Assembly: GCA_964480705.1 (NCBI GenBank)
Contig: CAYZPC010000004.1
Coordinates: 387-64,386 of the forward strand
Source: an uncultured archaeon
GTDB taxonomy: Archaea > Iainarchaeota > Iainarchaeia > Iainarchaeales > VGJJ01
Direction: 5' to 3'
Length of the DNA stretch: 64,000 nucleotides
The notes under the pieces are model-generated. The model was not told the origin of the DNA, did not search any database, and saw only the letters and a program-made list of their open reading frames with translations. A program made the position numbers and the translations under genes. Below are positions 4,801 to 30,540 of this stretch, piece after piece (the stretch's first letter is position 1; the number at the start of each line of letters is the position of its first letter).

Positions 4801-4846
4801 GCACGCTCACGTTGCGCGGATGAATTAAAAATCTAGGGAAAATTTT

Positions 4847-5104: not shown

Positions 5105-5148
5105 GCGTGTCCCTCTTTCTCATCATGGCAGGGTGATTAATAATCCCT

Positions 5149-5562: not shown

Positions 5563-5629
5563 GGCGGACGCTCTCCCCTTTTCTCTTTATTTCCGCCCTC
5601 CTTATTAACAAAAAAAAGGTATATTCGCC

Positions 5630-6022
5630 ATGCGCCCGCCTGAAAAGAGATGGTACGCTTCCCTGCTAAAGCACCCGCGCGGAACAGCCGAGTTGATTCA
5701 CACTATTTTTCCTTCTGCGCAGTTTGTATTGGAGAAGCAAGAGAAAAAAACCAACAAACTTGTCCGGCATGTTCGATTCGATTTGCGGGGTCAAACTATC
5801 ATGCGTGCGCGTTCTGAAATTGATGTACTAAAGACATCTCCTAAAGTTTTGAAATTGTTGCAGGAAAATAAAATTCCTCTTGGAATAATTCTAAAAAAAT
5901 TTAATATTCGCCACACCCGCGTCAAATGCACCTCCCGCACGCGTTCATTTCATTTCATTGGCGAGTTGCATGGGAAAATTTGGGAACGATTTTACTATTT
6001 GCCAAAAGAAGATTCAAAATAA
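5630..6022 (+). CDS. conserved hypothetical protein, tandem paralog B
   Basis: 130 aa; collinear similarity to 5149..5562 (VRFDLRGQTIMRAR … TRSFHFIGELHGKIWERFYYLP). Confidence 0.5.
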   Translation: MRPPEKRWYASLLKHPRGTAELIHTIFPSAQFVLEKQEKKTNKLVRHVRFDLRGQTIMRARSEIDVLKTSPKVLKLLQENKIPLGIILKKFNIRHTRVKCTSRTRSFHFIGELHGKIWERFYYLPKEDSK

Positions 6023-6035
6023 TACTCCATTTTTT

Positions 6036-12747: not shown

Positions 12748-13266
12748 ATGAAACCCGCACGCACTTTTTCTCACTCCTGTTCGCGCGCCCAAGCCACGCT
12801 TCCAGATATTCTCATGGCAACCATTCTTTTTCTTCTCATTTTAGTGGGCATTCTCACCTATTCTCAAAACACTCAAACGGCGGCACAAGACACAGTGGGG
12901 AGACAGCGCCTCGACGGTGTCACATCAACCATCGCCGAATTCATTATCAAAAACCCCGGCACCCCCTCCAATTGGGAGTTGCTCAATGACATTAACGCAG
13001 TCACTCAATTCGGTCTCGCCCAAAAGGACCGGGTGTTGGATTCGCAAAAAGTAGTAGCATTCATTAATTACTCCAACCTCGACTATACTGCCGTAAAATC
13101 CCGACTCAATATTCCTGGGTATGAATTTTACGTCCAACTTACCGGGGGAACGACACTCGATGCGGGACAATATCCTCCCGCCGACAAACCCGTGAGTGTG
13201 GTGCAGCGCCTTGTGACAATTAATGGAATTGAAACCACGTTCAAACTGATGGTGTATGAACCATAA
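12748..13266 (+). CDS. type IV pilin-like protein (class III signal peptide)
   Basis: MKPARTFSHSCSRA|QATLPDILMATILFLLILVGILTY. Confidence 0.6.
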   Translation: MKPARTFSHSCSRAQATLPDILMATILFLLILVGILTYSQNTQTAAQDTVGRQRLDGVTSTIAEFIIKNPGTPSNWELLNDINAVTQFGLAQKDRVLDSQKVVAFINYSNLDYTAVKSRLNIPGYEFYVQLTGGTTLDAGQYPPADKPVSVVQRLVTINGIETTFKLMVYEP

Positions 13267-16200: not shown

Positions 16201-16426
16201 AACCAGTTCGGTTCCCGCACTCTGCGGCGCACTCAATCCCGGGTGCGTGACTTCGGATTATTTGTTCACGAGCAACGTGTCTGCGGAAGGAGAATTATGG
16301 GCTGTTGTGAATCCTAATCAGACGATTCCAGAATGTACCTACAATGATCGCGACGTGCTATTCTGCTATCAAAATCCCTCCACACAATTTTTCACGCTGG
16401 ATTATTGGGTGTGGTTGAATGAGTGA
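13256..16426 (+). CDS. giant pilin-like adhesin: class III signal peptide + vWA (MIDAS) domain interrupted by an LVIVD-repeat β-propeller
   Basis: N-terminus KKSRAFAFSADVVLALILVTSLFVFL; MIDAS motif LDMVLVFDRSGSMSWDG at ~aa 225; ~470-aa insertion with repeated YAYLADGTSGLRIVNVS / YAIVSDGTSGIRILDVSTPSSP units (LVIVD-like); remainder of the vWA fold (LGLVSYSS…TATGDGINAA…ILMSDGLTNSG…VIYTIGFG). Confidence 0.75.
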   Translation: MNHNFFEKKSRAFAFSADVVLALILVTSLFVFLSAPTQPAAKLEERRVADQYVDDLFVALDHSGFMSHELDVNGYSIATLQNVHTRATSLLPSNYSAYLTLTRYPVDVNSCRSGQDFQSCFPDANVASLSYGTALSPTAEFVHGRRVFLQQQPASQCSASPSAASSNWPFALFPAQEPYTAYFSHDVNLTFDVNVSPSGPLTCDQNITISLQISGNTGARKPLDMVLVFDRSGSMSWDGQEDTTDAFGIALSSNAAFIADSTSGLRDINIINPGLPNLLGTYNSPGTARDVDVSGNYAYLADGTSGLRIVNVSTLTAPTSVATLDVGGDSYGVFTQDTLTYVATYGTSTTDQSNIVTANRDLEIGQSASNATAAQSFQPSLDFITGATVHVRRVGNPSGNLSVNLRSSLSGADLATATITPASLTTSYQDIEVTFPSLAQVTGGSTYYLVLTTTANNSSNYYQWGGRGTNGYANGTAYQNSTNQSHDMRFRTHYIPGLIKIDTTTKNSPSILGAATLTAPWRVLVENDYAYVADGSAGMRVFDVSADTPVEIGSYNTPGTAYDVTLDGTYAIVSDGTSGIRILDVSTPSSPTSIATYNTPGTAYAARVDAGIAYVADGSSIQVIDISTPSSPTFLRSYATPYNYRDLEIQNGWGFIAVDSSIEGLMTFNLSLGPKINQAQVAAQTFVDFNAWDSNNDQLGLVSYSSSATTDQTLTGNYALIRSDINALVASGGTATGDGINAATTELISARHNPSALKFQILMSDGLTNSGANSATAAITAANNGIVIYTIGFGAEADVAELNNIATITGGKYYSALDQNALIDVYNLIAQDIQLIATDANVVANIPTDVNIVSDGNGSFINGNLIFDINTQEPQPWTVDYTIIIPCTSQLACTSTLISVPSPGTQFQYVDANGNTIVIDWNVFETQSFNYYDLNLEIVSGDLVSTNNTDLTVKVSSVGNLDTNATSVSFYQNDPSFGNLLATSSVPALCGALNPGCVTSDYLFTSNVSAEGELWAVVNPNQTIPECTYNDRDVLFCYQNPSTQFFTLDYWVWLNE

Positions 16427-17429
16427 ACGCTCCACTTTGCGCGGACAACGAGGAGTACTATTCACCTTTCTCACTTTCCTCTTCATCAGCGCAGTCGTAG
16501 GATTAATTGTCTTCAACACTAACCTCTCAAACCGCACATCCACTTCCACCGTTGAAATTTCCGTTCTCAACGCCATCAACGCCAAATACGATGACATTAC
16601 CGATGACATTATCACGCTCGACCACCCCATTGGAATTCCATCCATTCACCAGCGCATTCTGCCCTTCACTCATTCCACGGACAAAAACACCATTACTTTT
16701 CTCCAAACCCTCCCCATTGCCAGCGGAAAACTTTCTCTCTATTACGATTTGATTAACGCCTACGCTATTTTCGTCCGCGACCAAAACACATCCCGAACAT
16801 ACGATGGAGTGGATGTTGACATTGACGTACCCAAACCCCCTGCATGGGGAGGCGCTGCCCAATCTGCAGGATTCAACATTCTTCCCCAGTGTGTACAATA
16901 TCGCATTCTGGATACGAACACGATTAATTTTTCCAGCGACAGTACGATTGGATGCGAAACCGATTTCTCAATGCGCACCCACGTTTCGCGCATCGACATC
17001 AACATCTACCTCCCCACAACCACTGATGATTACAACGGCGCCACATGCTCATTCAATGGAACATTCTCCTGCCCGCACGAGGATTTCAACGCGCAGAATG
17101 GTCCATTTATTTCCATATTATTTTTCGATTCCAATTGTACAAACTGCACTCTCTCAACTAGTGACAAAAACATCTCCGGACACTTTGACCCGGACATCGT
17201 GAGCACGATAACCTATGCGTGTACGTCCGGAAACTGCAACTCTCAACCGCTCACATTCACTTTCTCCGATGGTCTCGAAATTAATCACGGCGGAACGGCC
17301 GCGACTCTCTCGATGGGCGTTTCATTTACGGAAAGTATACGCACGTTCTACTACCAAGATGCTAATTATTCCGTCAGCAAGAGTGGATTTGATACGATTA
17401 AAAGCAACGTCGTGGTGTTCCCCCAATGA
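16419..17429 (+). CDS. type IV pilin-like protein (class III signal peptide), 336 aa
   Basis: MSERSTLRG|QRGVLFTFLTFLFISAVVGLIVF; overlaps the upstream stop. Confidence 0.6.
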   Translation: MSERSTLRGQRGVLFTFLTFLFISAVVGLIVFNTNLSNRTSTSTVEISVLNAINAKYDDITDDIITLDHPIGIPSIHQRILPFTHSTDKNTITFLQTLPIASGKLSLYYDLINAYAIFVRDQNTSRTYDGVDVDIDVPKPPAWGGAAQSAGFNILPQCVQYRILDTNTINFSSDSTIGCETDFSMRTHVSRIDINIYLPTTTDDYNGATCSFNGTFSCPHEDFNAQNGPFISILFFDSNCTNCTLSTSDKNISGHFDPDIVSTITYACTSGNCNSQPLTFTFSDGLEINHGGTAATLSMGVSFTESIRTFYYQDANYSVSKSGFDTIKSNVVVFPQ

Positions 17430-18556
17430 GCCCCGGCGATGCTGCTACTATTCTAATCGCCCTCATCGTGACGGGTGCCATTGCATACTTTTTTGTCTTG
17501 CCCTCTCTGCAAACAAATGCTTCTTCCGCATCGGCTGAATTATTCGTCGAAGCTCCCTCCACCACACTCCCCAATCAATCCATCAACGTCACCATTGCCG
17601 CTAAATACGCCGAAGGAAAAACCATTCAAGCCACATCTGATGGACAAGCCAAAACATTTTCATGCGCCACCACGCCGTGCATTTTCTCCACCACGTTTTC
17701 CTATGCTCAACCCGGAGAAAAAACCATTTTAGTGCAATTAGATTCGCTCACGGAAACACGCACGATTAACGTGACGGCAGTCTCCAAACGCTGTCTCGAT
17801 GGCACCGTAGACGGAACGTGTTCCGCGCCCCCATTTTTTTGCGAAAACGCTCAACTGGTTTCCAATTGCACTCGCTGCGGCTGCCCCTCGGGAGAAGAAT
17901 GCATCTCCAACACGTGCACAAAACCCCCACTCACCTTTTCCATTCCTCTTGTTACCATTCCCGAAAATGTTTACACCACTGCCGTGGCGGCGGTGAATTA
18001 TTCTATTCAAAACACTTCCTCATTTGACGCGGATGGATTATTTTTACTCGTTGCCCAATCGTACTCTTCTTCGGAACAACTCCTTGATGAGCGCGCGCAG
18101 CAGATTCAACTCCACGATTTAGCGCCGGGAACAATTCACACGGGAACCGTGTCCATTTTGTTTCCGCTCAACACAACCAGTTTGCGCTTGCGCTTGTACG
18201 ACAACCCTTCTTCTTACCCTTCATCTACTCTCCTCGCCGAATCCGCTCGAGAAAATGTTCGCGTCACCACCGACACGACACCGCCCCTTCCCCCCACGCA
18301 ACTGGCTTCATCTTCCTCTGCCGGAGAAACACTTCTAACATGGACCGCATCCCCTTCCTCGGATGTAAAAAAATATATCATCTTTCAAGAAAACTTTTCC
18401 AACGGGGGATTCACCACCTATTCTACCGCGGGAGAAACCACCTCCACCCAGTTTTCTATTTCTTCTCCATCCTCTCCACTCGCCTACGTGGTTCGTGCCA
18501 TAGATGGTGCGGGAAACCAGAGTGAACCCACCTCTCCTGTGGTCGTTTCCTCTTAG
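17426..18556 (+). CDS. membrane-anchored protein with a Cys-rich segment and a C-terminal fibronectin type III-like domain
   Basis: N-terminal TM (ATILIALIVTGAIAYFFVL); Cys cluster CLDGTVDGTCSAPPFFCENAQLVSNCTRCGCPSGEECISNTC; FN3-like C-terminus (PPTQLASSSSAGETLLTWTASPSSDVKKYIIFQE…YVVRAIDGAGNQSEP); ATGA overlap with the upstream gene. Confidence 0.55.
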   Translation: MSPGDAATILIALIVTGAIAYFFVLPSLQTNASSASAELFVEAPSTTLPNQSINVTIAAKYAEGKTIQATSDGQAKTFSCATTPCIFSTTFSYAQPGEKTILVQLDSLTETRTINVTAVSKRCLDGTVDGTCSAPPFFCENAQLVSNCTRCGCPSGEECISNTCTKPPLTFSIPLVTIPENVYTTAVAAVNYSIQNTSSFDADGLFLLVAQSYSSSEQLLDERAQQIQLHDLAPGTIHTGTVSILFPLNTTSLRLRLYDNPSSYPSSTLLAESARENVRVTTDTTPPLPPTQLASSSSAGETLLTWTASPSSDVKKYIIFQENFSNGGFTTYSTAGETTSTQFSISSPSSPLAYVVRAIDGAGNQSEPTSPVVVSS

Positions 18557-18585
18557 GTTAAATACTCTAACTCATTTTTTCGGGC

Positions 18586-19197
18586 ATGGCCGACGCTCCC
18601 CCTGCCAGACCTGGATTATTTGCCGGGCTCGCCAAAATTCTTCATCTGCACCAGCTGCCGCAAGCCGCTCCAGGAACTAAAACTATTTCACCTAAAGGAG
18701 ATAGTGTGGTGATGGTGCCTCCCGTGCGCGCACCCGCGTCCTCTGCGAACACTTCCAAAACGCTTCCCACCCGTGCACCCATTCCTTCCCCCGTTTCTTC
18801 ACCCGCAAGCACGATGACTGCTCCGGTGTCGCGTCCAACTTCCCCTACACAACCAGCAGCTCCTCGTGCTCTCCCACACGCGACTGTTCCATCGGCAGGA
18901 TTATCCTCCATGGGAAACACGCACCCCAAGTGGGCCGTTTCACACGAAGTGAATCCTCCGCACACGCACGCACAACCCGGCGTATCAAAAGGAGTCATCG
19001 TCACCGATTACGATCGCATTCTCGATTTAGTAAAAGCCCGCCACCCCATCAAGTTGGATGAAATCGCGCGCCTTCTCTCTCTCAAAGAAGAATTAGTCGC
19101 ACAAGAATTGCAAACACTAGAAGACAATGGTTTAGTTGACGTGAAATATCCTGCATTTGGAGAACCACTCATCTATTTCAAAACACCCGAGGCCTGA
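18586..19197 (+). CDS. Pro/Ser/Thr-rich protein with a C-terminal winged-helix-like domain
   Basis: Low-complexity P/S/T-rich N-terminal 140 aa; C-terminus DRILDLVKARHPIKLDEIARLLSLKEELVAQELQTLEDNGLVDV reads as HTH/wHTH; sits immediately before the ATPase gene. Confidence 0.4.
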   Translation: MADAPPARPGLFAGLAKILHLHQLPQAAPGTKTISPKGDSVVMVPPVRAPASSANTSKTLPTRAPIPSPVSSPASTMTAPVSRPTSPTQPAAPRALPHATVPSAGLSSMGNTHPKWAVSHEVNPPHTHAQPGVSKGVIVTDYDRILDLVKARHPIKLDEIARLLSLKEELVAQELQTLEDNGLVDVKYPAFGEPLIYFKTPEA

Positions 19198-19200
19198 CGC

Positions 19201-20691
19201 ATGACATTCCAACGCATCGAAACGTATCCCATTCAAGCGGACATCACGGTGAGTGTGGACATTGGAAAAGATGACGTGGAGTTCGTCAAACGATACATTT
19301 TGCACACGCCCGAGTTTGGACTCGGAACGCGAGCGATGCTAAACGATTTGAAATCACGCATCGTGACAGAAGTAAACATCTCCTCCGAAAAAATGCTCGA
19401 TGCCAAATTTGTCGCCGAACTCAAAAAAACGTTTCACGAAAAAGCAGCCGTGCTCCTCGCGCGCGAACTCCCCGAACTCACGCAAGACGCGCGAGATCAA
19501 CTCTCCTCTGTCATTCTTAATGAAATGGTGGGACTGGGTCCCATTGAATTTCTCCTCGCGGATGGAAACCTCGAAGAAATTGTCGTGAACGCGGCCACAG
19601 AACCTGTGTGGGTGTATCACAAAAAACATGGCTGGTTGAAAACAAACATCATCATTACTCCAGAAGCCGAGATTCAAAATTACGCTAGCATCATTGCCCG
19701 CCGCGTTGGAAAACAAGTCACGGTGCTCAATCCCCTTCTCGATGCACACTTAGTCACAGGAGACCGTGCCAACTCCACACTCTTTCCAATTTCCTCGCGC
19801 GGAAACACGATTACTATTCGTCGTTTTCGCCGCGACCCGTGGACGGTAACCGATTTCATTGACACCAAAACATCCAACGCGGCATCCATGGCCATGCTCT
19901 GGCTCGCCATGGAATACGAACTAAACATCATTGTGTCCGGTGGAACTGGATCGGGAAAAACAACTCTCCTCAACGTCATGCTCCCATTCATACAGCCTAA
20001 CCAGCGTGTGCTAACCATTGAAGACACGCGCGAATTACAATTGCCTGACTTCCTGCACTGGGTCCCCATGACCACGCGCGAACCCAACTCCGAAGGAAAG
20101 GGCGGCGTGGGCATGCTTGATTTGCTCGTGAACTCCCTGCGAATGCGACCGGACCGAATCATTGTAGGTGAAATTCGTCGTCAGAGGGAAGCTGAAGTCA
20201 TGTTTGAAGCCATGCACACTGGACACTCGGTTTACGCGACGGTGCACGCCAACACCGCCGATGAAACCATTACGCGATTAGTAAGTCCGCCGATTGAAAT
20301 TCCCCCCTCTCTCTTAGAGGCCGTGCACTTGAACGTGGTCATGTTCCGTAATCGAAGATTAGGAGTGCGCCGTATCCTCCAACTTGCCGAATTCGTTCCT
20401 CAAAAAGCGGGAAGCGAAGGAAAAATACAAATCAAACCAAACATTTTGTACCGCTGGAGAGCATCCACGGACACTATTGAAAAATACGCGGAAAGTATTC
20501 GATTGTTTGATGAATTAGGCTTACATACGGGATACTCGGCGCAGGAACTCACCCAAAATTTATCTGAAAAACAACGCATCCTCGAATGGTTAGGCAAACA
20601 AAAAATACGCGACATTAATGAAGTGGGAAAAGTCATGGCAGAATATTATGCGGAACCCGAAACCGTGTTGAAACGCGCAGGAATCAAGTGA
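19201..20691 (+). CDS. type IV filament assembly ATPase (FlaI/TadA/VirB11 family)
   Basis: Walker A GGTGSGKTT; Asp box TIEDTRELQL; Walker B/His box region RPDRIIVGEIR…; 496 aa, typical for archaeal secretion-superfamily ATPases. Confidence 0.85.
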   Translation: MTFQRIETYPIQADITVSVDIGKDDVEFVKRYILHTPEFGLGTRAMLNDLKSRIVTEVNISSEKMLDAKFVAELKKTFHEKAAVLLARELPELTQDARDQLSSVILNEMVGLGPIEFLLADGNLEEIVVNAATEPVWVYHKKHGWLKTNIIITPEAEIQNYASIIARRVGKQVTVLNPLLDAHLVTGDRANSTLFPISSRGNTITIRRFRRDPWTVTDFIDTKTSNAASMAMLWLAMEYELNIIVSGGTGSGKTTLLNVMLPFIQPNQRVLTIEDTRELQLPDFLHWVPMTTREPNSEGKGGVGMLDLLVNSLRMRPDRIIVGEIRRQREAEVMFEAMHTGHSVYATVHANTADETITRLVSPPIEIPPSLLEAVHLNVVMFRNRRLGVRRILQLAEFVPQKAGSEGKIQIKPNILYRWRASTDTIEKYAESIRLFDELGLHTGYSAQELTQNLSEKQRILEWLGKQKIRDINEVGKVMAEYYAEPETVLKRAGIK

Positions 20692-20801
20692 GGTCTGCGC
20701 ATGATTGCACACTTAAACATCGGCCTTTTTTGCTTCGCAAAAAACCCCGGGGAAAATTTTGCATGTGTTTTGCATTACCTGTTCAAGTGGAGTGATCGTT
20801 C

Positions 20802-21695
20802 ATGATTGCACACTTTAACATGCCCCTGAATGTGCTGCCCATGCCCATGCTCCGATGGGCGAGCAAACATTTGCTTGGACTCGGCACCCAATTTGGAAAA
20901 CTCATGCCGCTCTCCGACAGCGACATGAAAAAAGCCGAAATACCCATGTCGGCAAAAGAATACTCCACCATGAGCCTCGTGATTGTTATTTTTTATTTCA
21001 TCTTTTTCGGATTCCTATTTTTTGTCATGACATTCCGATTATTTTCAAGTCTGGACATTCTTCTCCCATTAGGAGTTAGCTTTCTTTTTTCTATTTTAGT
21101 ATTAGTCCAACTCATCACATTTCCCATTATTCGCGTCACCAAAAAAGTCCGAGACTTAGACCGAAATCTCGTGTTTGCCCTGCGCACCATTCTCGTACAG
21201 CTTCGCTCGGGAGTAAGTTTGTTTGAATCCATGAAACTAGTGGGAGAAGGAAACTACGGCGCCGTGTCACGAGAATTCAAACGAGCCGTTGACCAAATTT
21301 CAACGGGAACGATTCAAGAAATTGCCCTCGAACGCATTGCAGAGTACAATCCGAGCATATTTTTTAGACGAGCCATCTGGCAAATCGTAAATGGAATGCG
21401 CGCCGGAGCAGACATTACAGTCGTATTGGGAGAAAGTGTGGACACTCTCACGGAAGCACAATCCATTCAAATTCGCAATTATGAAAGTCAAATGAAAATA
21501 CTCTCACTCGTTTACATGATGCTCGGCGTCATCGTTCCCGCGCTGGGAATCACCTTCCTCATCGTGCTCTCCTCTTTTCCCCAAATCAAAATCACCGAAC
21601 TCTATTTTTGGATTCTCCTCGCGGGAGTGAGCATCGCCCAATTCATGTATTTAGGTATTGTCAAAAGCAAGCGCCCGACGCTGCTGGGTGATTAA
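20802..21695 (+). CDS. pilus platform membrane protein, single T2SSF domain (TadB/EpdJ-like)
   Basis: 297 aa with TM helices and a GspF-type motif ALRTILVQLRSGVSLFESMKLV. Confidence 0.7.
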   Translation: MIAHFNMPLNVLPMPMLRWASKHLLGLGTQFGKLMPLSDSDMKKAEIPMSAKEYSTMSLVIVIFYFIFFGFLFFVMTFRLFSSLDILLPLGVSFLFSILVLVQLITFPIIRVTKKVRDLDRNLVFALRTILVQLRSGVSLFESMKLVGEGNYGAVSREFKRAVDQISTGTIQEIALERIAEYNPSIFFRRAIWQIVNGMRAGADITVVLGESVDTLTEAQSIQIRNYESQMKILSLVYMMLGVIVPALGITFLIVLSSFPQIKITELYFWILLAGVSIAQFMYLGIVKSKRPTLLGD

Positions 21696-21697
21696 AC

Positions 21698-22714
21698 ATG
21701 CCCTCCTCGCGCAACGATTTCATTTTTCTCCGCGCCATTATCGAAGCGTTTGAAACAGAGTTCGCCTACTTGGGAGTGCGAATCTCCTCGCGAAAATTCG
21801 TTCTCAACATGCTCATGTTTGCCTTCGCCGCGAGCGTGGGCTCCACTATTTTTACCAGCCTCGTGCTGCGCTGGCCATACTTTTTAGTGGTAGTGGGATT
21901 TTTCGCCACATTCATCCTCGTCATGGGGGGAATCTACATGTTTTTGGACTTGCAAGCCGAATCCCGCGGACGACAAGTCGAACGCGTTCTCCCCGATGCA
22001 TTGCAACTCATCGCCAGCAACATCAAATCCGGACTCACCACGGAACGCGCGCTCCTCGTTTCCGCGCGGCCGGAATTTGGTCCGCTTGAAACAGAGTTCA
22101 AACGCATCTCCACCCGAATACTATCGGGTGTTCCCATCGAGAAAGCCATCATGGAAGTGCCCAAACACATCAAATCAACTCTTGTTGAACGCACGATGTG
22201 GCTGCTCGCGCGCGGAATATCTTCCGGAGGAGAAATTGCGGATTTATTATTACAACTCTCCCGCAACCTTCGCTCCCAACTCACTCTGCAAAGCGAAGCC
22301 CGCGCATCTATCTCCATTTATGTTATTTTGATATTCTTCTCCGCCGCGTTTGGAGGGCCTGCACTTTATGCCGTGTCAAGTTTCATTGTCGAAGTCATGA
22401 GCTCGCAAATAGGAAACCAGCCCCAAATTGATCCAGGTGCGTTAGCCGCCGCGGGCGCACGATCATCTTCATTAGGCGCATTTGTGGGAGGAAGCTCTGG
22501 AATCATTTCCCCTGAATTCATCACCATGTTCGCGCAAATCATGTTATTTGTGGGAGGAATATTTGCCTCGCTCATTTTAGGGGCGATAGCCACCGGAAAA
22601 GAAAAAGATGGAATCAAATATTTGCCATTCGTCATGCTCTGCTCGTTCGGATTATTTTTCCTCATACGATTTGTGTTACACTCCGCATTTGGAACACTCT
22701 TGTTAGGCGGATAA
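21698..22714 (+). CDS. pilus platform membrane protein, single T2SSF domain (TadC/EpdK-like)
   Basis: 338 aa; LPDALQLIASNIKSGLTTERALLV…; polytopic membrane protein; adjacent to the TadB-like gene. Confidence 0.7.
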   Translation: MPSSRNDFIFLRAIIEAFETEFAYLGVRISSRKFVLNMLMFAFAASVGSTIFTSLVLRWPYFLVVVGFFATFILVMGGIYMFLDLQAESRGRQVERVLPDALQLIASNIKSGLTTERALLVSARPEFGPLETEFKRISTRILSGVPIEKAIMEVPKHIKSTLVERTMWLLARGISSGGEIADLLLQLSRNLRSQLTLQSEARASISIYVILIFFSAAFGGPALYAVSSFIVEVMSSQIGNQPQIDPGALAAAGARSSSLGAFVGGSSGIISPEFITMFAQIMLFVGGIFASLILGAIATGKEKDGIKYLPFVMLCSFGLFFLIRFVLHSAFGTLLLGG

Positions 22715-22760
22715 ATCGTTCGTGTGGCGCACACGAAATTATTATTGTGTAAATGGTACA

Positions 22761-23474
22761 CTACACTTGCGAGAATAATTCTTCTTTGGGAAGGACTTCA
22801 ATTCCGTGCGCAGTGATTCGTACGGGGCGGAGTTTGTCGCTGATTTTAGTATCGCGCATTTTGAGAATACCAATACTTCTCACAAAACGATTTTCCACGC
22901 GCGTGTGGTACAAGAGAACAACTCCATCCGCCACATATTCTTCCAATCCAAACAATCCTTCGTGCTGTCCCGTGGTGGATTCGTTGGTGACTATCGTGGT
23001 GACGTTTAATTTTTTCAACATTTTTCCCAAACTCAGGATGCGTTTTCGTGCATCTAATTCGCGTTCAAAATACAAATGAAAAATGACACCGGGGTCGATG
23101 ATGAGCCGCGATGCTTTGTGTTTCGCAACTAAATCCTCAATACTGTCTCTCAACTTGTCAAAATCATACAACTCAACGGTTTGCATGATTATTTTTCCTT
23201 TCTTAATCATCCCTTCCAAATCCCACCCAAAAATAGCGGCCGTCTCCATAAGCTCTTCAGGCTTTTCTTCCAGTGAAATAAACACGCCCGTTTCATTGTG
23301 TTTAGCCGCTCCATTGTACAAATATTGCAGGCAAAAAATGGTTTTTCCCGCTCCGGGGTCTCCCGTTAATACGACTAAATTTCCTTTCGGAATACCCCCC
23401 TCAATCAACTCGTCTAAACCCATGACTTCGGTCGGGGTGCGTTGCACGATGGCGTTGCCCATGACACTTTTCAC
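22761..23474 (-). CDS. KaiC/RecA-superfamily ATPase, FlaH-like
   Basis: Walker A LVVLTGDPGAGKTIF; Walker B-like ASRLIIDPG; ~230 aa as in FlaH; the true start may be the internal MGLDELIEGGIP (23423). Confidence 0.7.
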   Translation of the reverse strand: MKSVMGNAIVQRTPTEVMGLDELIEGGIPKGNLVVLTGDPGAGKTIFCLQYLYNGAAKHNETGVFISLEEKPEELMETAAIFGWDLEGMIKKGKIIMQTVELYDFDKLRDSIEDLVAKHKASRLIIDPGVIFHLYFERELDARKRILSLGKMLKKLNVTTIVTNESTTGQHEGLFGLEEYVADGVVLLYHTRVENRFVRSIGILKMRDTKISDKLRPVRITAHGIEVLPKEELFSQV

Positions 23475-23552
23475 ATTTCCTTAGATATATACCCATCGGG
23501 TGTGCAATTGCAGGCACTTTAACACACCCGCTTTCGCCGGAAACATGAACGT

Positions 23553-23561
23553 TTATATATC
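23553..23561 (+). promoter_or_regulatory. TATA box-like element of the major pilin gene
   Basis: TTTATATAT ~60 nt upstream of the ATG at 23618; SD AAGGAGGAG at 23601–23609 in the predicted 5'UTR. Confidence 0.4.
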
Positions 23562-23617
23562 GCGATTTGTTACCCTATCCAGCCAATTACCTTTCTTTGC
23601 AAAGGAGGAGAAAAAAT

Positions 23618-24079
23618 ATGAATTTCAAGAAACGAGGACAATCGGCACTCGAATACTTGATGACCTACGGCTGGGCCTTGGTCGTTATTGTAATTGCAGT
23701 TGCTGCATTAGTTGTATTAATTAATCCGAGTACGATTCAAGGAAATCAATGTGACGCTAAAATTGGACCGTTTACAGTTAGTCAAAGTCAAGTGACTGCT
23801 GCAACAACGCAGTTAGTTTTAGTTAATCAAACCGGACAGGGCGTGACATTAACTGATGTTAACGTTAGTGGTACGCACGGTGGTTCAACAACATACAATG
23901 ACACAGGTTCAACGTTTACTTCTGGAACGGTATTAAGCCCTAACCAGACAGTTACTGTGGTTGTTAATCAAACACCTGACATTAACACTGGATCATACAA
24001 TCTAACATATCAGTTGACGTATGATGCTGGTCAGTTACAAGGTGTTACCGCTTCAGGAAGCTGCCGCGGTACAATATAA
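23618..24079 (+). CDS. major type IV pilin (class III signal peptide, Q+1; DUF361-like)
   Basis: MNFKKRG|QSALEYLMTYGWALVVIVIAVAALVVLI (textbook archaeal prepilin N-terminus); 153 aa, Thr/Asn/Gly-rich β domain; own promoter, strong SD, downstream terminator. Confidence 0.8.
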   Translation: MNFKKRGQSALEYLMTYGWALVVIVIAVAALVVLINPSTIQGNQCDAKIGPFTVSQSQVTAATTQLVLVNQTGQGVTLTDVNVSGTHGGSTTYNDTGSTFTSGTVLSPNQTVTVVVNQTPDINTGSYNLTYQLTYDAGQLQGVTASGSCRGTI

Positions 24080-24094
24080 TTTGATTCATTTTCA

Positions 24095-24135
24095 GGGTTG
24101 TGCTCCGAAAGGAGCCACCCTTCTTTTTTTATTCT
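24095..24135 (+). terminator. hairpin + T-tract terminator after the major pilin gene
   Basis: GGGTTGTGCTCC-GAAA-GGAGCCACCC stem-loop followed by TTCTTTTTTTATTCT. Confidence 0.5.
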
Positions 24136-24155
24136 CGGTTTAACTCGTTTCTCGC

Positions 24156-24824
24156 ATGCCCAACTCATCTTTTCCCTCGCGCGCGGCAGTATCCAATTCT
24201 CCCCCTGAAAAATCGGCGCTCTCCGATGAACAACTCTCCGAACTTTTACGCCCGGGAAAAGATTTTGAAAATGCGCTCGGAGCATCCATCAAAACGCTTC
24301 CAGCAGGAACCACTAACCTTCTCATCGTGCGCCTCAAAGATTATGCCACCACGCCGCGCGCACTCTTAACCTATTTTGCGCAGGAAAAAATGCCCGGCGT
24401 ATATGTGAGCGTGAACAAACCCTACATGGACATTGTGAAAACCCTCCCAAACAAAGAAACATCCATTCCTCAAACACAATTCGTGGATGCGATCACTGCC
24501 CTTACCGGAAGAGGGGTTGAAGACAATCAAGTTGTCACGTTCATTGACTCTCCACTTGCGCTCGTGGAACTCAACCTCGCCATCTCGGATCGAATGAAAG
24601 GACTCGTGAGCAATCAAAAATTCTTAATACTCGATTCCGTGTCCACGCTCCTCGTGTATAATACTCCTCAATCCGTCGAAAAATTTTGCCACACGGTGAT
24701 TGCCAAAAACCGCGCGGAAAATGTGCTAGGATTATTCCTCATGATTGAATCCGAAGACCATCGCGGGGTAGTGGAAACGCTCGCGCAGTTTGTGGACAAT
24801 GTCATTACCGTCAAACCGCAATAA
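24156..24824 (+). CDS. degenerate KaiC/RecA-like protein lacking a P-loop
   Basis: KaiC-like topology (…FLILDSVSTLLV… Walker-B-like; LGLFLMIESEDHRGVVETLAQFVDNVI) but no GxxGxGKT motif. Confidence 0.4.
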   Translation: MPNSSFPSRAAVSNSPPEKSALSDEQLSELLRPGKDFENALGASIKTLPAGTTNLLIVRLKDYATTPRALLTYFAQEKMPGVYVSVNKPYMDIVKTLPNKETSIPQTQFVDAITALTGRGVEDNQVVTFIDSPLALVELNLAISDRMKGLVSNQKFLILDSVSTLLVYNTPQSVEKFCHTVIAKNRAENVLGLFLMIESEDHRGVVETLAQFVDNVITVKPQ

Positions 24825-24848
24825 TTTTTTCTAACTTTCAACGAAATA

Positions 24849-26024
24849 CTAGAACTCGACGACAACGCCCCAATTTTTGACGCACAACTCGCTCAATTCG
24901 CGCTTCAATTTTTCGGCCGCGTGCGAAAGATGTTCCTCTTCCTGCAAGTGCTCCGCGGCCACGCGCAATGACTCTTCTATTCCTCGCTGCGCCTCCGCTG
25001 CCTTGCTTTCCAAACCCACTTTCATGGAAAACAATTCGTGCTCCTGATACGCATTCACATTCCAACGAATCGCCTCATCCAACTGAATGAGTTGTTCAAA
25101 AAACAAAATGAATGATTCTTCTTCCAGTGCGTTCTCCAGCACGCTGCGAATCTCCTCGCGCTTTTCACTATTCGAAATCTCTGGCAATGATTCAACCGCC
25201 ATGCGTAGCAGCATGACTAATCCGGCGCCATGCACATCGCGCTGCACTGCATTTAGGGGATTGGCTAAATACCATTGCAACATTCGCATCTGCGCATTCT
25301 CCATTTCCTGAAAACGCGGTACATGTTCATTCAAATATTCTAAACACGGACGCACGCGCTCCCATGTTTCCAACCATGCTTGCGTGCGCGCCGTTTTTTC
25401 CTGCGTGAGTTTGTGAAACGACTCCTGCAAACGCATAAACGTATCAAACCCTCGGTGCTGCGAAAGCAATTCCAAGGATTGCTGCGCGGACATTAATGCA
25501 TTCTCCCACAACTGCGCATCCCTCTCCGCACTTTGCCGCGCGACAGCCATTTGGTTGCGCTGCACGAAAAGTTCGGCAATCATTTCCGCCAACTCATTTG
25601 GTTTAACTGCCGGGTGCTTTGACAAACCCTGCACGGTGATGCGGCGCATATCAATCAACACTTCATCGGCTTCCGCGAGCCAACCCTGAATCTGCGGAGG
25701 CACATTTTCTCCCCATCTGCGTTGAAGTAAAGGAACTATTTTCTCTGACCACTCTTGATGCGTGTGCGCCGCATACTTCAACAATTTTTGTTCACTCATG
25801 GGGGGAAGATGCTTCTCTAGTAATTGTGCTAACTCAGCGTCACCCATTTGTTCGGCATGTCTCGCGAGGCGCGTCACCACATGTTTCACCTGCGCGGCGC
25901 GCAACGCTAACGATTGAACCACTTTTCCCTGGTCTTTAGACAATCTTTCTTCAAAAAAAGCCCGGGCTTCCGCAAAGGAAATTTTCTGTCCGCTCTGCGT
26001 GTCTTTGCCCCACATACTGCTCAA
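24849..26024 (-). CDS. hypothetical α-helical protein (391 aa)
   Basis: Long ORF, charged/helical composition, no recognisable motif. Confidence 0.5.
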   Translation of the reverse strand: MSSMWGKDTQSGQKISFAEARAFFEERLSKDQGKVVQSLALRAAQVKHVVTRLARHAEQMGDAELAQLLEKHLPPMSEQKLLKYAAHTHQEWSEKIVPLLQRRWGENVPPQIQGWLAEADEVLIDMRRITVQGLSKHPAVKPNELAEMIAELFVQRNQMAVARQSAERDAQLWENALMSAQQSLELLSQHRGFDTFMRLQESFHKLTQEKTARTQAWLETWERVRPCLEYLNEHVPRFQEMENAQMRMLQWYLANPLNAVQRDVHGAGLVMLLRMAVESLPEISNSEKREEIRSVLENALEEESFILFFEQLIQLDEAIRWNVNAYQEHELFSMKVGLESKAAEAQRGIEESLRVAAEHLQEEEHLSHAAEKLKRELSELCVKNWGVVVEF

Positions 26025-26189
26025 CTTTCAGAACGGCGCGCGAATATATAATGGCCATTACTTCTGACGCAAAAGAAAGGGATATTGCTCTCGCCCTCTG
26101 ACACAATTACTGTGCTAAAGTACACGCGAATATCCGCCTGATTTAAAAAGGGCGAATTATTACTCAGACTGATAGTTGAGGGATGTACC

Positions 26190-26822
26190 ATGAAGATGAT
26201 TGGGATTGTAACAATGTTATTGCTTGGAATGCTTATACTCGTTCCAATTGTGTCTGCGAACGTGGTTACGACTACGATGACGTGGTTCGTTGCCTCGGCG
26301 AAATCAATTTCAGTATCATACGGTTCGCCTTGTACTTCTTCAGCGTTCTTCTTTGTTGAAACAAACGCCCAGTTTGACCCGGATTCGGATGGAAATGCTG
26401 CGCGAGTGGTGCCTACCTCTACCCGAATTGCGGACAGCAACTGTCAGTCATCCTCACAAGCTAGTATGGTTGTTACCAACACGGGAACAAGCACTCTGAA
26501 TGTGGATGCAAACTTTGGTTCGGCATTTGCAGGAGCCGATACTAACATTGTGTTAAAAGTGTGGCAAGGAACCGGAACAGGTTGTGGAACATTTGGATTA
26601 GGCGGCTGGGAAGCCACGTGTTCGGTTGTTACTGTAACATCCGCTCCCAACACGACAACGTGCCGAAACTTCAATGAACATAATGAACTTGCCGGTGCGC
26701 GAGTCATCACCAACTTAGCAGCCTTTGCCTCTCAGCAGCTCTGCTATTCGGGTGACTTTAACGCGTATGTGAGTGCAGGAGACCACAACGGATCGTTCCA
26801 GTTGGGTTCCGAATTCAGTTAA
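26190..26822 (+). CDS. secreted Thr/Ser/Gly-rich protein (Sec signal peptide)
   Basis: MKMIGIVTMLLLGMLILVPIVSA|NVV signal peptide; 210 aa β-type composition with 6 Cys. Confidence 0.5.
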   Translation: MKMIGIVTMLLLGMLILVPIVSANVVTTTMTWFVASAKSISVSYGSPCTSSAFFFVETNAQFDPDSDGNAARVVPTSTRIADSNCQSSSQASMVVTNTGTSTLNVDANFGSAFAGADTNIVLKVWQGTGTGCGTFGLGGWEATCSVVTVTSAPNTTTCRNFNEHNELAGARVITNLAAFASQQLCYSGDFNAYVSAGDHNGSFQLGSEFS

Positions 26823-26843
26823 TGGAATATATTCAACTCGTGT

Positions 26844-26890
26844 GTCCGCCTCATTTGGCGGACCACCATTTCTTTTTTCTCTTTTTTCCC
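26844..26890 (+). terminator. hairpin + T-tract terminator
   Basis: GTCCGCC-TCATTT-GGCGGAC followed by TTTCTTTTTTCTCTTTTTTCCC. Confidence 0.45.
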
Positions 26891-26951
26891 TTTGAAAAGT
26901 CAAAGATTTATTAATGCGAGGAGTATTCTCGTAGCGTTGGAGGAGTAAGAT

Positions 26952-27974
26952 ATGTCGAAACTATTTGCCGGGGGCGCATTCAAATCATCAAACAAATTAT
27001 TGTGGGGCGGAATTGCTATCATTGCCCTTGTCGGAGTATATTTCCTGTTCATGGTAAACCCTGCAGCGTCTGCGACGACAGACACTTCAACTAATTCATT
27101 AGGGACTATTCCTTCCGATTCAAGTGCATCGCCCATTTCGGCCAATACCACTGAGAATTTTTCTGAATCATTGAAGAGCGAGCTCAGTAAAGCCCGCTAC
27201 GTGAAAGAAGTATTCAAAATTAATCGTGTTGTGCTCGACTTATATGAAAAAGCAGCCATTTTTCGCGGAGAAACACTCGAGGAAGTAACTGAATTTTTTT
27301 ACAATTGCTGCGGACTCACGCAAGAAAGCGATATTTTTGCTGAATTGCCCCCTGTTCCTGCAGACTTTGCTGAAGTTGCGTATCAACTGCAAACGGGAAG
27401 ACTCTATCAAATTGGCGCATTAGGCGCAGAATATTATACGCAGCCTGAATTTTATTTTCAAGGAAACCTCACTGCATTAGTGAATCGACGACTCGCATTC
27501 CGTGCGTGGAGCGAACCCCAATTGCAATACTGGGGAGACTACGGCTTGAGTGTTTATCCCTCCACTCAAAACACCGATGTTGTCAAATCGACTCGACCCA
27601 CATTTACCGCAGTCATGTTTGCCAGCACGCCCTGGAATATTCAGAATTACATTGGAATGCAATTGATTGCCGACAGCAAGTCGAAAGAATATTTTGATAT
27701 CAAAATCTCCGAAGTGCGCACGGGACAACCCTACTTTTTACTCGAACCCACATTCCCCTATTTTTATCGAAATTGGGCAACCAAAGTGGTTATCGAAGGA
27801 AAAGTCAAACCGGACACGCCGCCCGGGGACTATGTCATTAACATCAACCCAACGCTCCCCCCATCGGAATTAAACATAACCTGGGCGGACCAGCATCCCG
27901 GATTATACGCCACGTACGGTGCATTATTCCCCGAAGATGGGTATGGTAAATTGTTCATCACGGTCTCCCCGTGA
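26952..27974 (+). CDS. N-terminally membrane-anchored extracellular protein, hypothetical
   Basis: 340 aa; TM LLWGGIAIIALVGVYFLFMV then a Thr/Ser-rich linker and a globular domain. Confidence 0.5.
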   Translation: MSKLFAGGAFKSSNKLLWGGIAIIALVGVYFLFMVNPAASATTDTSTNSLGTIPSDSSASPISANTTENFSESLKSELSKARYVKEVFKINRVVLDLYEKAAIFRGETLEEVTEFFYNCCGLTQESDIFAELPPVPADFAEVAYQLQTGRLYQIGALGAEYYTQPEFYFQGNLTALVNRRLAFRAWSEPQLQYWGDYGLSVYPSTQNTDVVKSTRPTFTAVMFASTPWNIQNYIGMQLIADSKSKEYFDIKISEVRTGQPYFLLEPTFPYFYRNWATKVVIEGKVKPDTPPGDYVININPTLPPSELNITWADQHPGLYATYGALFPEDGYGKLFITVSP

Positions 27975-28019
27975 TGGGCAAACCCACGCTTAATTAAATA
28001 CCAATTCATTCGCTTCTCC

Positions 28020-30026
28020 ATGTTTTCATGGACACGCGTCGCGCGACTCAGTGTAGCGGTGTTGCTCGCTTTCATCCTATTTTTTCCCGTCGCCACCGCA
28101 AACACGTCCACCACCACCGCCACATGGGTTCCGGGAGGAGATGTGGCATACACGGTCACACTCTCCTATCCGCAGTGTCCGCTCGCCAATGGAAACACCC
28201 AAATCCGCGCAGATGTAGAAGGAACCAACAACGGACAAATCATTGATGATGCCGTCGTGTATGCCACGATTCGAAAACCCGATTTGAGTACAACGGATGT
28301 CAATTTTTCAAACGATGGAAATGGAACGTACACGTACACGTACAACTTTGACCAAAATGGAACATACTTCATTGATGCAACCGCATTCAAATCTCCCTCA
28401 TCTTCAGGAGATGTGAATGGATATGTGTATCTAAACAACACGGATTTCAACATCACATTCATCAACAATGGATTCTCTCTCGACATTGGTGCGTTGGGAG
28501 AAATACAAAACTTTGTTTACAACACGGATGATGTGCTCGTGTTTGATTTGAACGCGAACACCACGCTCTATTATCCGAGCGGCTCTGTTGCGGATGCAAA
28601 CTTGACCATGACGCAAAATAATACCGGAGAATATGTTCGTTCATTCTTTGGACCATCTCCCGCAGGAAATTATTCCGTCACGAGCACATTCCAATGCGGC
28701 GCGCGCTATCACCAAAACACGGGAGGAACATTTACCGTAAACGCAGCCGCATCTTCCGGCGGGGGAAGCAGTGGCGGAGGAGATTCAGGCAGCGGGGGAG
28801 GCGGAGGAGGCGGTGGCGCGGGCGGTGGCGCAGGACCACGCTCACGCATTGTGTCCATTGACTTTCAACCGGTACTTGGAAAGGGAGCGCCTTCGCGAAT
28901 GCTCGCCACCGTACAAAATCTCACGAGCAGTGTAGTGGACTACACCCTCACTTACACCATTCAAACTCCCTCCGGACTTTTTTCAATAGGTGAAAGCGAC
29001 ATTATTGCAGTGGGGCCCTACGGCATAACAACCGTGGCAATCGAAGAAGCATTCATGCCCCTCGAGACAGGAACATACGTGCTCAACGCGGAATTATTCC
29101 GAATGAACACGATTGCACGCTTCGACACGTACGAACAAACGTATCTCGTGGAAGGAGAACACGCCGTTACATTAGACGTAGCGCCCTCTTCTGATAAAAC
29201 AGCCGTGGGACTAAGCTATCCCTTTTCCATTAATTTAGTCAACAATGGAGACTTCCTCGAAGAAAATGTTCAACTAACGTGGTATTTGATTAACGCGGAT
29301 GGAGAAGAATACATTCGCTCCACGCACAGCGTGGATCTTTCTCCCAATGAAACGGCGTCGCTTCCCTATTCTCCATTTATTCCCATCAATTCTCCCATGG
29401 GGCTGCACCAGTTAGTAGTGGAAATGCACGCCTATAATTTGACGCAAACTGCCACGGTCATTTTCACTGTGTCCTCGCCCAATGATTACTATTCGCAAGT
29501 CATCGCTGATTTAGAATTACGCATTTCTCAACTCGATGAAAAACTCGATGACTTATCTCAACGCGGATTTGACACGGCTGCGTTGGAATTAATTTTGCTC
29601 GACATTCGAACGGATGTGGCGCGCACCAAAGGAATGCTCCTCGCGGGAGAATTTGACACGCTAAATGACAACCTCATTGATTTATCCGGACGCGTAACGC
29701 GGTTAGCGGCAGAAGTGGACTCACTTGAGCAACAATCTCCCCTCCTCTCGCGCGAAGGACTCACTCTTCTGCTCTACATTGGCGCGGGGCTTTTGCTCGG
29801 AGCATTTGCGTGGCTGCTGCACTGGTTGTTGGAAAAAGAACGCAAGGAACGAGGCAAACGTGGGGGAGTAGTGCTTGTTCCCGCTTCTCCTGGCTGGCTC
29901 ACTTCCCTCTTAGGAGTGAATAATTGTTACATCCTCGCATCCGAACGCGAGAAGTTGAAGCGTAAGCCTTTAATAGACCGGATAATTGGATTGATGGAAG
30001 GTGAGTCTTCGCATGATAACCAGTGA
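28020..30026 (+). CDS. cell-surface protein with signal peptide, Gly-rich linker and C-terminal TM anchor
   Basis: Signal peptide MFSWTRVARLSVAVLLAFILFFPVATA; (G/S)-linker SGGGSSGGGDSGSGGGGGGGGAGGGAG; coiled-coil then TM LTLLLYIGAGLLLGAFAWLLHWLL + EKERKERGKRGG. Confidence 0.6.
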   Translation: MFSWTRVARLSVAVLLAFILFFPVATANTSTTTATWVPGGDVAYTVTLSYPQCPLANGNTQIRADVEGTNNGQIIDDAVVYATIRKPDLSTTDVNFSNDGNGTYTYTYNFDQNGTYFIDATAFKSPSSSGDVNGYVYLNNTDFNITFINNGFSLDIGALGEIQNFVYNTDDVLVFDLNANTTLYYPSGSVADANLTMTQNNTGEYVRSFFGPSPAGNYSVTSTFQCGARYHQNTGGTFTVNAAASSGGGSSGGGDSGSGGGGGGGGAGGGAGPRSRIVSIDFQPVLGKGAPSRMLATVQNLTSSVVDYTLTYTIQTPSGLFSIGESDIIAVGPYGITTVAIEEAFMPLETGTYVLNAELFRMNTIARFDTYEQTYLVEGEHAVTLDVAPSSDKTAVGLSYPFSINLVNNGDFLEENVQLTWYLINADGEEYIRSTHSVDLSPNETASLPYSPFIPINSPMGLHQLVVEMHAYNLTQTATVIFTVSSPNDYYSQVIADLELRISQLDEKLDDLSQRGFDTAALELILLDIRTDVARTKGMLLAGEFDTLNDNLIDLSGRVTRLAAEVDSLEQQSPLLSREGLTLLLYIGAGLLLGAFAWLLHWLLEKERKERGKRGGVVLVPASPGWLTSLLGVNNCYILASEREKLKRKPLIDRIIGLMEGESSHDNQ

Positions 30027-30285
30027 ACTCCTGATATCCGTTGGACTATTTGTGGTGCAAATGGTCATCGCCGTGTATCTCATACGCTATTCCAACCAGC
30101 AGCTCATGAAGAGCATTTCCGGCTTGCGAGACAAAAACTTAGAATTGATGAAACTCAACGCGCGATTAACCAAAACAGTCATCATGAATGAAGACAGCTT
30201 CCGAAAAGAACTCGATGGACTGCGCAAAGGTGCTCGATCAAGTGAGAAAACGGTTGTACAGCCTGTTGCGGCAAAGGCCGAGTGA
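30001..30285 (+). CDS. small TM + coiled-coil protein, tandem paralog 1
   Basis: 94 aa; shares the VAVYLIRYSNQQL core with the next ORF; 26-nt overlap with the upstream gene. Confidence 0.4.
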   Translation: MSLRMITSELLISVGLFVVQMVIAVYLIRYSNQQLMKSISGLRDKNLELMKLNARLTKTVIMNEDSFRKELDGLRKGARSSEKTVVQPVAAKAE

Positions 30286-30297
30286 GCGTGAGTTCAC

Positions 30298-30540
30298 ATG
30301 CCTTTCGCTGAAATCATTGTTTCGGTTGGATTCTTTGTCATGGCCATGCTCGTGGCCGTGTACCTCATACGCTATTCTAACCAGCAGCTCACGCGCTGCC
30401 TGACTTCATTGGAAGAAAAACACAATGAACTCGTTGATTTGAATGGAAAACTCGCCAAGCAAATATTTTCATCCGACAAAAAATTACGCGATGATTTAGA
30501 AGCCGTGAAACGCGCGCACAAGAAAGCAAACGCGTCATGA
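30298..30540 (+). CDS. small TM + coiled-coil protein, tandem paralog 2
   Basis: 80 aa; MPFAEIIVSVGFFVMAMLVAVYLIRYSNQQL…. Confidence 0.4.
   Translation: MPFAEIIVSVGFFVMAMLVAVYLIRYSNQQLTRCLTSLEEKHNELVDLNGKLAKQIFSSDKKLRDDLEAVKRAHKKANAS

Follow-up and report, generated by a model that had tools for sequence, protein, structure and literature searches.

What do a KaiC-family ATPase and a relative that has lost its nucleotide-binding loop contribute to an archaeal pilus, and why does one lie on either side of a pilin gene? The locus that raises this question is found in a 64,000-nucleotide stretch (the window; positions below count from its first letter) of contig CAYZPC010000004.1, from an uncultured archaeon of the Iainarchaeota. 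A first-pass annotation, made from the sequence alone, had proposed that the two proteins form a FlaH/pseudo-FlaH pair acting as a motor scaffold. Our analysis indicates instead that the pair, a KaiC ATPase and a protein of the Pfam family DUF7504, is not a FlaH pair and probably assists or regulates the assembly of the pilus: most likely the two make up an accessory or regulatory module of the pilus machine that depends on nucleotide and in which the dead copy is the adaptor. In its most specific form, to which we commit ourselves only tentatively, this reading holds that the two proteins are an ancient module that serves a PilB3-type pilus machine and gates its assembly as a ring and adaptor. 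DPANN archaea spend their lives bound to host cells, a bond for which type IV pili are leading candidates; to our knowledge, DPANN pilus machines are known from gene lists only. A highly conserved KaiC ATPase with a catalytically dead twin would be a testable candidate for switching or scaffolding the assembly of such pili. The features at the center of the locus are these:

22761-23474, minus strand: single-domain KaiC-family ATPase, 237 residues (Pfam KaiC, PF06745)
23475-23617, no strand: divergent intergenic region with putative TATA-like boxes for both flanking genes
23618-24079, plus strand: type IV pilin, 153 residues, with a class III signal (from the translation; N-terminus MNFKKRGQSALEYLMTYGWALVVIV)
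24102-24129, plus strand: GC hairpin GCTCC-GAAA-GGAGC followed by a run of seven T, after the pilin stop codon; a weak candidate terminator
24156-24824, plus strand: P-loop-less KaiC-like protein, 222 residues (Pfam DUF7504, of the inactivated KaiC, or iKaiC, type)

Both KaiC-like open reading frames lie where the first-pass annotation had put them (it gave no strand for the first, which is on the minus strand), and the pair does flank a pilin gene within a type IV pilus (T4P) locus. The ATPase gene starts with GTG; an alternative ATG at 23462 would give a protein of 233 residues, the length of several orthologues. The intact Walker A motif that had been read in it (GDPGAGKT) is there, accompanied by a catalytic SLEE, a Walker B motif (RLIIDP), and an arginine finger (KMRD). 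The protein scores 200.5 bits against Pfam KaiC (E 3e-59; gathering threshold 26.6), and against the solved KaiC CI domains in the PDB it reaches E 1e-56, with a residue alignment in which GDPGAGKT, SLEE, IIDP, and KMR fall on the CI motifs. Where the KaiC CII domain has its Ser-Thr phosphosites the window ATPase has Glu-Tyr, which is why we call it CI-like; because the catalytic Glu-Glu is kept, we predict that it hydrolyzes ATP as an active KaiC-CI-type enzyme. The motif GxxxxGK[ST] is retained in 117 of 120 homologues. Across ten related loci this is the most conserved protein of the locus, at 79-95% identity, on a par with the assembly ATPase (T2SSE, 75-93% in the same comparison) and TadC, while the DUF7504 protein is at 46-81%. 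The dN/dS ratio of the KaiC gene is about 0.03-0.04, with dS near saturation.

More specific identities for the ATPase were tried and rejected. As an ArlH/FlaH orthologue it scores 42.5 bits against the ArlH model NF052589 (cutoff 215), 40.8 against the FlaH model PRK06067 (cutoff 194), and 31.0 against PRK08533 (cutoff 215); among the sequences of solved structures, the PDB FlaH entry 4wia is matched at E 2.8e-5 over residues 19-76 only (58 residues). It is not circadian KaiC proper, since it has one domain rather than two and scores 170.4 bits against an equivalog cutoff of 408. Membership in RadB (37.6 versus 172 bits) or RadA (30.7 versus 259) falls far below the cutoffs as well. A profile comparison with FlaH, KaiC, and RadA was one check that the first-pass annotation had named, and in it KaiC passes while ArlH/FlaH, RadA, and RadB fail their cutoffs. 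The description of the protein as FlaH-like therefore holds for its size and superfamily but not for orthology, given 42.5 bits against a cutoff of 215 on the one hand and the CI match on the other. Judged by its sequence, the window ATPase is not FlaH/ArlH and resembles a KaiC CI domain.

The second protein has DUF7504 as its sole Pfam match (49.1 bits; cutoff 27) and no match in NCBIfam. As the first-pass annotation had it, the protein carries FLILDS and LFLMIESEDHRG and has no GxxxxGK[ST]: LKDYATTP stands in place of the Walker A GDPGAGKT and an invariant NKPY in place of the catalytic Glu-Glu (LEEK), whereas the Walker-B-like FLILDS survives. Its KaiC-like character, claimed at the same time, agrees with a fold search. 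An AlphaFold (AF2) model built on 23 orthologues (predicted local distance difference test, pLDDT, 82.6) gave as its top Foldseek matches PH0284, SSO2452, PH0321, PH0250, and KaiC, with probability 1.0 and template modeling (TM) scores of 0.54-0.62. Compared with the sequences of solved structures, neither the protein nor its profile matched anything significantly (best, KaiC at E 0.025); the best matches of the profile there were KaiC-like (KaiC, SSO2452, PH0284), and FlaH was not among them. Bridging members connect the family with KaiC: in alignment A3, all 19 members match DUF7504 and 9 of them individually match Pfam KaiC too, and relatives of the window protein also match DUF7090, DUF835, and KaiC.

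Could this gene simply be the functionless, decaying remnant of a duplicated KaiC gene? The lost Walker A loop and catalytic glutamates are what such decay would leave behind, but everything else about the family speaks for maintenance. It comprises 4289 representative clusters at E<=1e-3 (541 at E<=1e-30), GxxxxGK[ST] occurs in none of its 149 top representatives, D111, P133, D160, S161, S163, L166, F177, and H179 are invariant across phyla, and the dN/dS ratio of the gene is 0.08-0.18 (dS again near saturation). We give this explanation next to no chance: family size, invariant residues, and dN/dS effectively refute it. As modeled, the DUF7504 protein keeps a KaiC/RecA-like fold, has lost the P-loop and the catalytic glutamates, and is under purifying selection. 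Nor is the observation as a whole due to chance, because orthologues of its genes are matched down to E 1e-137 and dN/dS is low for both. The N-terminal 50 residues (24156-24310) are an extension specific to the Iainarchaeota, perhaps a docking peptide, that is not present in Aenigmatarchaeota and other homologues; in its conserved motif, LSDEQLxELLRPGKEFE, L31 and P33 are invariant, and E36 and E38 are found in 90% or more of sequences.

How general the association is was gauged by scanning species-representative genomes with alignment A4, which yielded 79 loci, 13 of them close to ours and 66 distant (<=38% identity), whose neighboring genes were called by a hidden Markov model scan. The lineages covered were Iainarchaeota, Micrarchaeota, Woesearchaeota, Aenigmatarchaeota, Altiarchaeota, and Nanohaloarchaeota, together with Methanosarcinales, Hydrothermarchaeaceae, Bathyarchaeia, Thaumarchaeota, and Asgard archaea. 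All 13 close loci and 41 of the 66 distant ones have a KaiC-like gene no more than 800 bp from the DUF7504-like gene; counting only the distant loci with at least 1 kb of flank on both sides, the figure is 35 of 54. Often the two genes overlap on one strand as an operon, KaiC first. A T2SSE or T2SSF gene is found within the fetched flanks of 11 of the 13 close and 23 of the 66 distant loci, and in 10 of the 23 distant loci that have at least 8 kb on both sides. The pilus-linked examples come from Iainarchaeota, Aenigmatarchaeota, Woesearchaeota, Altiarchaeota, and Hydrothermarchaeaceae. The first-pass annotation had staked its proposal on the two proteins not turning out to be unrelated RecA-family members without pilus company; what we find is co-occurrence with pilus genes in at least five archaeal lineages.

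The arrangements differ from one lineage to the next. The order T2SSE-TadC-TadC-KaiC(-)-pilin(+)-DUF7504(+)-helical(-), embedded in further genes on both sides, is common to 13 related loci (the last gene encodes a helical protein described below). In Aenigmatarchaeota, the KaiC and DUF7504 genes stand back to back (divergent) at one end of a T4P locus that also holds pilins, two TadC genes, T2SSE, and an HTH-CBS protein; in other Iainarchaeota, KaiC and DUF7504 follow one another on the same strand and overlap; and in Woesearchaeota, DUF7504 copies lie in tandem beside TadC and T2SSE. Locus L055 has a same-strand operon KaiC'-DUF7504-KaiC-x-T2SSE(PilB3_C)-T2SSF, a pattern seen also in L037, L041, L048, and L079. 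A test in the reverse direction, starting from three KaiC homologues about 61-63% identical and chosen for their long contigs, found a DUF7504 gene 1-5 nt after KaiC in all three; in two of them, KaiC directly follows T2SSE-TadC-TadC and an oppositely oriented orthologous pilin gene. Thus L087 (7337-8693) and L088 (7319-8696) read TadC(+), pilin(-), KaiC(+), DUF7504(+), to be compared with 22761-24079 of the window. By this comparison of gene orders, the two-gene segment [pilin-KaiC] of the window's clade is inverted relative to other Iainarchaeota-type loci. The inversion broke up an ancestral KaiC-DUF7504 operon, which is why the pair now flanks the pilin gene.

These arrangements also bear on whether the two proteins have anything to do with pili. 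They might be DNA repair or recombination factors of the RadA-paralogue type, or otherwise unrelated to the pilus, and owe their position to accidental synteny. Among the closest structural matches of the DUF7504 model is SSO2452, which we take to be a RadA paralogue, and within the close clade synteny proves little alone, because nearby ribosomal protein genes are syntenic too. The RadB and RadA scores given above speak against a repair factor, however, and the pilus association turns up again, with the genes ordered and oriented differently, in five or more distant lineages, which a gene order inherited from a common ancestor cannot explain; pairing in such varied orders and orientations argues against inherited synteny. 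We regard this explanation as quite improbable.

The gene between the two, 23618-24079, probably encodes the major pilin. Its class III signal peptide is clear from the translation (KRG before QSALEYLMTYGWALVV / KRG before QSALEYLMTYGWAL), and orthologous pilins occupy equivalent positions in L087, L088, and, in Aenigmatarchaeota, L004 (15816-16193). In the divergent intergenic region, two candidate promoters were read from the sequence, a TATA-like TTTATATA at about 23553-23560 for the pilin gene and, on the minus strand, a TATA-like TATATATCTAAG immediately before the start of the KaiC gene; a GGAGGAG ribosome-binding site precedes the pilin ATG. If the hairpin at 24102-24129 acts as a terminator, it would make the pilin gene monocistronic. 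A simple sigma-70 promoter/terminator scan, which is ill-suited to archaea, did not report it.

The pilus locus as a whole spans 13256-30026, as defined from open reading frames and a Pfam scan. Its other features are:

13256-18556, plus strand: block whose first gene encodes a 1056-residue protein with a VWA domain, LVIVD repeats, and a hydrophobic N-terminus (Pfam)
Within 13256-18556, plus strand: two genes for pilin-like/unknown proteins after the VWA-LVIVD gene, with overlapping start and stop codons
18586-19197, plus strand: 203-residue protein with a winged helix at the C-terminus (Pfam), directly 5′ of the T2SSE gene
19201-20691, plus strand: assembly ATPase of the T2SSE/VirB11 family with a PilB3-like C-terminus (Pfam T2SSE, 137 bits)
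20802-21695 and 21698-22714, plus strand: two TadC/FlaJ-like platform genes (Pfam T2SSF, 52.8 and 51.3 bits)
24849-26024, minus strand: helical protein, 391 residues, convergent with the DUF7504 gene

With a T2SSE ATPase, TadC-like genes, and a pilin with a class III signal together, this is an archaeal T4P locus. The whole 64-kb window holds a single KaiC-like, a single DUF7504, and a single T2SSE gene, with no second copies. The PilB3_C match of the T2SSE ATPase is weak, at 19.6 bits (that of L055 scores 35.8 against a cutoff of 27). Among the NCBIfam equivalogs, the protein falls below the cutoff for FlaI (267.7 versus 550 bits) and for TadA (TIGR03819; 201.9 versus 373). A bacterial-type Tad pilus was rejected on this TadA score and because no ParA/MinD-like (TadZ/CpaE) gene was seen in the Pfam scan of the locus open reading frames. 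Some relatives have a pilus ATPase gene of roughly double the length (L088, 2239-5355; L017, 3564-6608; L008, 3367-5403), and that of L088 is intein-containing, with intein and LAGLIDADG domains inside the T2SSE domain.

Upstream, the gene order of 13256-19197 is common to L001, L002, and L008-L020. The two genes that follow the VWA-LVIVD gene overlap it and each other by 4-8 nt (at 16419 and 17426), and one of their products, of 336 residues, has an N-terminal pilin-like signal (RGQ followed by a hydrophobic stretch); the products of this block are probably pilus-tip or adhesin components. The winged-helix protein, whose N-terminal half is rich in Pro, Ala, and Ser, may be a locus-specific regulator. 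At the equivalent position, the Aenigmatarchaeota locus L004 has a CBS-CBS-HTH protein (19615-20343, minus strand). Several secreted or membrane proteins are encoded past the helical-protein gene. Near the end of the locus lie two tandem small paralogs of 94 and 80 residues (30001-30285 and 30298-30540, plus strand), each with a near-identical transmembrane segment (containing VGLFVVQMVIAVYLIRYSNQQL and VGFFVMAMLVAVYLIRYSNQQL, respectively) and then a helical tail; they have no Pfam match and are conserved in L001 and L002, where they again close the pilus locus.

The gene content also bears on the proposal of a true FlaH/pseudo-FlaH pair, which would form a cytoplasmic scaffold for the motor in the way that FlaH links FlaI to the FlaX ring. 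The ATPase does resemble FlaH in superfamily and size, its locus is that of a type IV filament, and the conserved helical, possibly coiled-coil neighbor of 390-450 residues could act in a FlaX-like manner. But the ATPase misses the ArlH/FlaH models widely and is far closer to KaiC CI, the DUF7504 profile finds KaiC, SSO2452, and PH0284 rather than FlaH among solved structures, the lone T2SSE gene fails the FlaI cutoff, and the locus has no archaellin, ArlF/G, or ArlCDE/X genes, its pilin being a non-archaellin. We also know of no pili of this type that rotate. Altogether, we consider such a pair improbable.

How, then, might a KaiC/DUF7504 module serve the pilus machine? The steps we have in mind follow from the analogy with ArlH and ArlI. 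Like KaiC and ArlH, the ATPase would assemble into a ring in a nucleotide-dependent way; the dead DUF7504 partner would bind that ring as an adaptor, bridge, or cap; and the complex would gate the assembly ATPase or platform post-translationally. By that analogy, it would do for these pili the job that ArlH does in the archaellum, without being orthologous to ArlH.

Several observations weigh against this reading. The surveyed loci are a biased sample, having been retrieved via two conserved peptide patterns, and the background against which their pilus linkage is seen is a rough estimate rather than a measured rate, put at about 5% for 20 kb taken at random from an archaeal genome of 1-2 Mb. 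Of the distant loci with long flanks, roughly one in two lacks any gene for a pilus ATPase or platform protein within 8-10 kb, and members from TACK and Asgard archaea mostly stand alone, with neither a KaiC neighbor nor pilus genes nearby; since so many loci lack pilus genes and the TACK and Asgard members are stand-alone, the KaiC-DUF7504 module is not pilus-specific. In the window itself, the KaiC, pilin, and DUF7504 genes look like separate transcription units. Finally, a direct hhalign comparison between the DUF7504 family and the KaiC-neighbor family is weak (E 0.015), so that the homology of the two rests on the fold search and the bridging members; in that alignment, LLIVRLKDYATTP falls exactly on LVVLTGDPGAGKT, in the KaiC P-loop register.

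A pair so often far from any pilus gene would fit a regulatory module at least as well, and this brings in the alternative to which we give most weight: a signaling pair, or "KaiC hub," that controls pilus gene expression or several outputs at the transcript level without touching the motor, with the dead KaiC as an input or output adaptor that perhaps feeds the winged-helix protein at 18586-19197. The window KaiC gene is divergently placed, like that of CirA, a KaiC-like protein of Haloferax volcanii encoded divergently beside the arl genes, which lowers arl transcription (PMC10983859). An HTH protein is a constant part of the pilus loci of Iainarchaeota and Aenigmatarchaeota, and a CI-like ATPase with Glu-Tyr at the CII phosphosites would suit a slow timer or switch. 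A role as signaling hubs in archaea has, moreover, been proposed for KaiC-like ATPases and inactivated homologues of these (Makarova et al. 2017, as cited in PMC5847659). Yet in the same-strand operons T2SSE and T2SSF come directly after KaiC and DUF7504, a placement more usual for machine subunits; KaiC is as conserved as the motor proteins; and ArlH, which alone among the KaiC-like proteins of type IV filament machines has been studied biochemically, acts by direct binding. We therefore hold control at the transcript level alone to be possible but doubtful. An accessory of the machine, our preferred reading, and transcriptional signaling are not mutually exclusive.

A more elaborate version of the machine-accessory idea takes in the helical neighbor at 24849-26024, which may be a third component of the module. 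Its counterparts in relatives, of 427-450 residues and at the same position, always lie convergently after the DUF7504 gene (also in L087, 9378-10700, and L089, 9415-10698, both on the minus strand). They evolve fast, with 25-60% identity even between close relatives, and are weakly collinear (E 0.004 to the L089 protein), sharing a motif NPL..(L/V)..D. The 391-residue protein has no Pfam match, and its single-sequence AF2 model is all-helical, at low confidence (pLDDT 56). In the DUF7504 protein, a conserved polar pocket is lined by N87, D111, D160/S161/S163, H179, and D214. One could imagine that KaiC, the dead KaiC, and a helical protein of 390-450 residues make up a cytoplasmic ring/adaptor, parallel to ArlH plus ArlX, that belongs, so far unrecognized, to the core of the adhesive pili made by DPANN, Altiarchaeota, and allied archaea, the polar pocket of the dead copy binding a peptide or ligand and not ATP; we think this unlikely.

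Two observations from the survey stand apart from these questions. Between the two TadC-like genes of the L055 pilus operon lies a gene (14941-16452, plus strand) with DNA gyrase A C-terminal beta-propeller repeats (224.7 bits), an unexpected domain in that place. In L007, a weakly related DUF7504/DUF7090 gene (10001-10618) with a degenerate GPSLSGKRR loop lies away from pilus genes; some 4 kb separate it from a gene cluster for Bil-like ubiquitin-like conjugation (BilD_N/ThiF, Prok-JAB, and BilB-like; 3434-6193, minus strand).

A role in pili would give a first function to DUF7504, a curated Pfam family of thousands of members on which we found no literature. It would also add a case for KaiC-like proteins and their inactivated copies as general archaeal switches.

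Of the known systems, cyanobacterial KaiC is the best sequence match: the Walker A motif, Glu-Glu, Walker B motif, and arginine finger of its CI domain all align. The window protein differs in having a single domain and Glu-Tyr at the CII phosphosites, and no KaiA, KaiB, or KaiB-like gene was seen among the locus open reading frames. With CirA, compared by description only, the window ATPase shares divergent placement beside type IV filament genes; CirA, however, acts on archaellum genes and cell shape, and no paired dead KaiC has been reported for it. The DUF7504 protein is of the type of the inactivated KaiC domains credited, in PMC5847659, to Makarova, Galperin & Koonin 2017. It shares with these (Pfam DUF7504, DUF7090, and DUF835) the KaiC fold and a degenerate ATPase site. 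As far as the passages of PMC5847659 on these domains go, it differs in standing alone, not fused to REC, HalOD1, or other domains, and in adjoining an active KaiC, with DUF7504 often near pilus genes, a pairing that the 2017 work itself possibly contains. The systematic pairing and its linkage to pili in DPANN and allied lineages may be a new detail.

The published survey of archaeal T4P loci, from 2016, precedes most DPANN genomes. That survey (Makarova, Koonin & Albers 2016, PMC4858521) found that several T4P systems of archaea have a strong association with KaiC-family ATPases (arCOG01171/01174/01175), so the premise of the first-pass annotation that no such partners are known for non-archaellum pili is out of date. 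Its "clade 2" systems have two tadC genes and PilB3-type ATPases, an architecture that the window locus shares, judged by gene content; an inactivated KaiC partner is not mentioned (PMC4858521).

A functional parallel is offered by ArlH. This KaiC-like protein stimulates the ATPase ArlI, a homologue of the pilus assembly ATPase, to which it binds as a hexamer in a manner that depends on nucleotide and phosphorylation; it binds ATP and autophosphorylates but does not hydrolyze ATP (PMC8978795). The differences are that the window ATPase keeps the Glu-Glu of KaiC CI whereas ArlH is non-hydrolyzing, that the window locus is without archaellum genes, and that a P-loop-less twin has not been reported for ArlH. 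Both are single-domain proteins of about 230 residues with the KaiC/RecA fold and a Walker A motif, the gene of each belongs to a locus for type IV filaments, and the window ATPase is likewise a plausible partner of a VirB11/T2SSE-family ATPase. If the pair does bind the assembly ATPase, control of the ArlH kind would not be peculiar to the archaellum but common to the type IV filaments of archaea in general.

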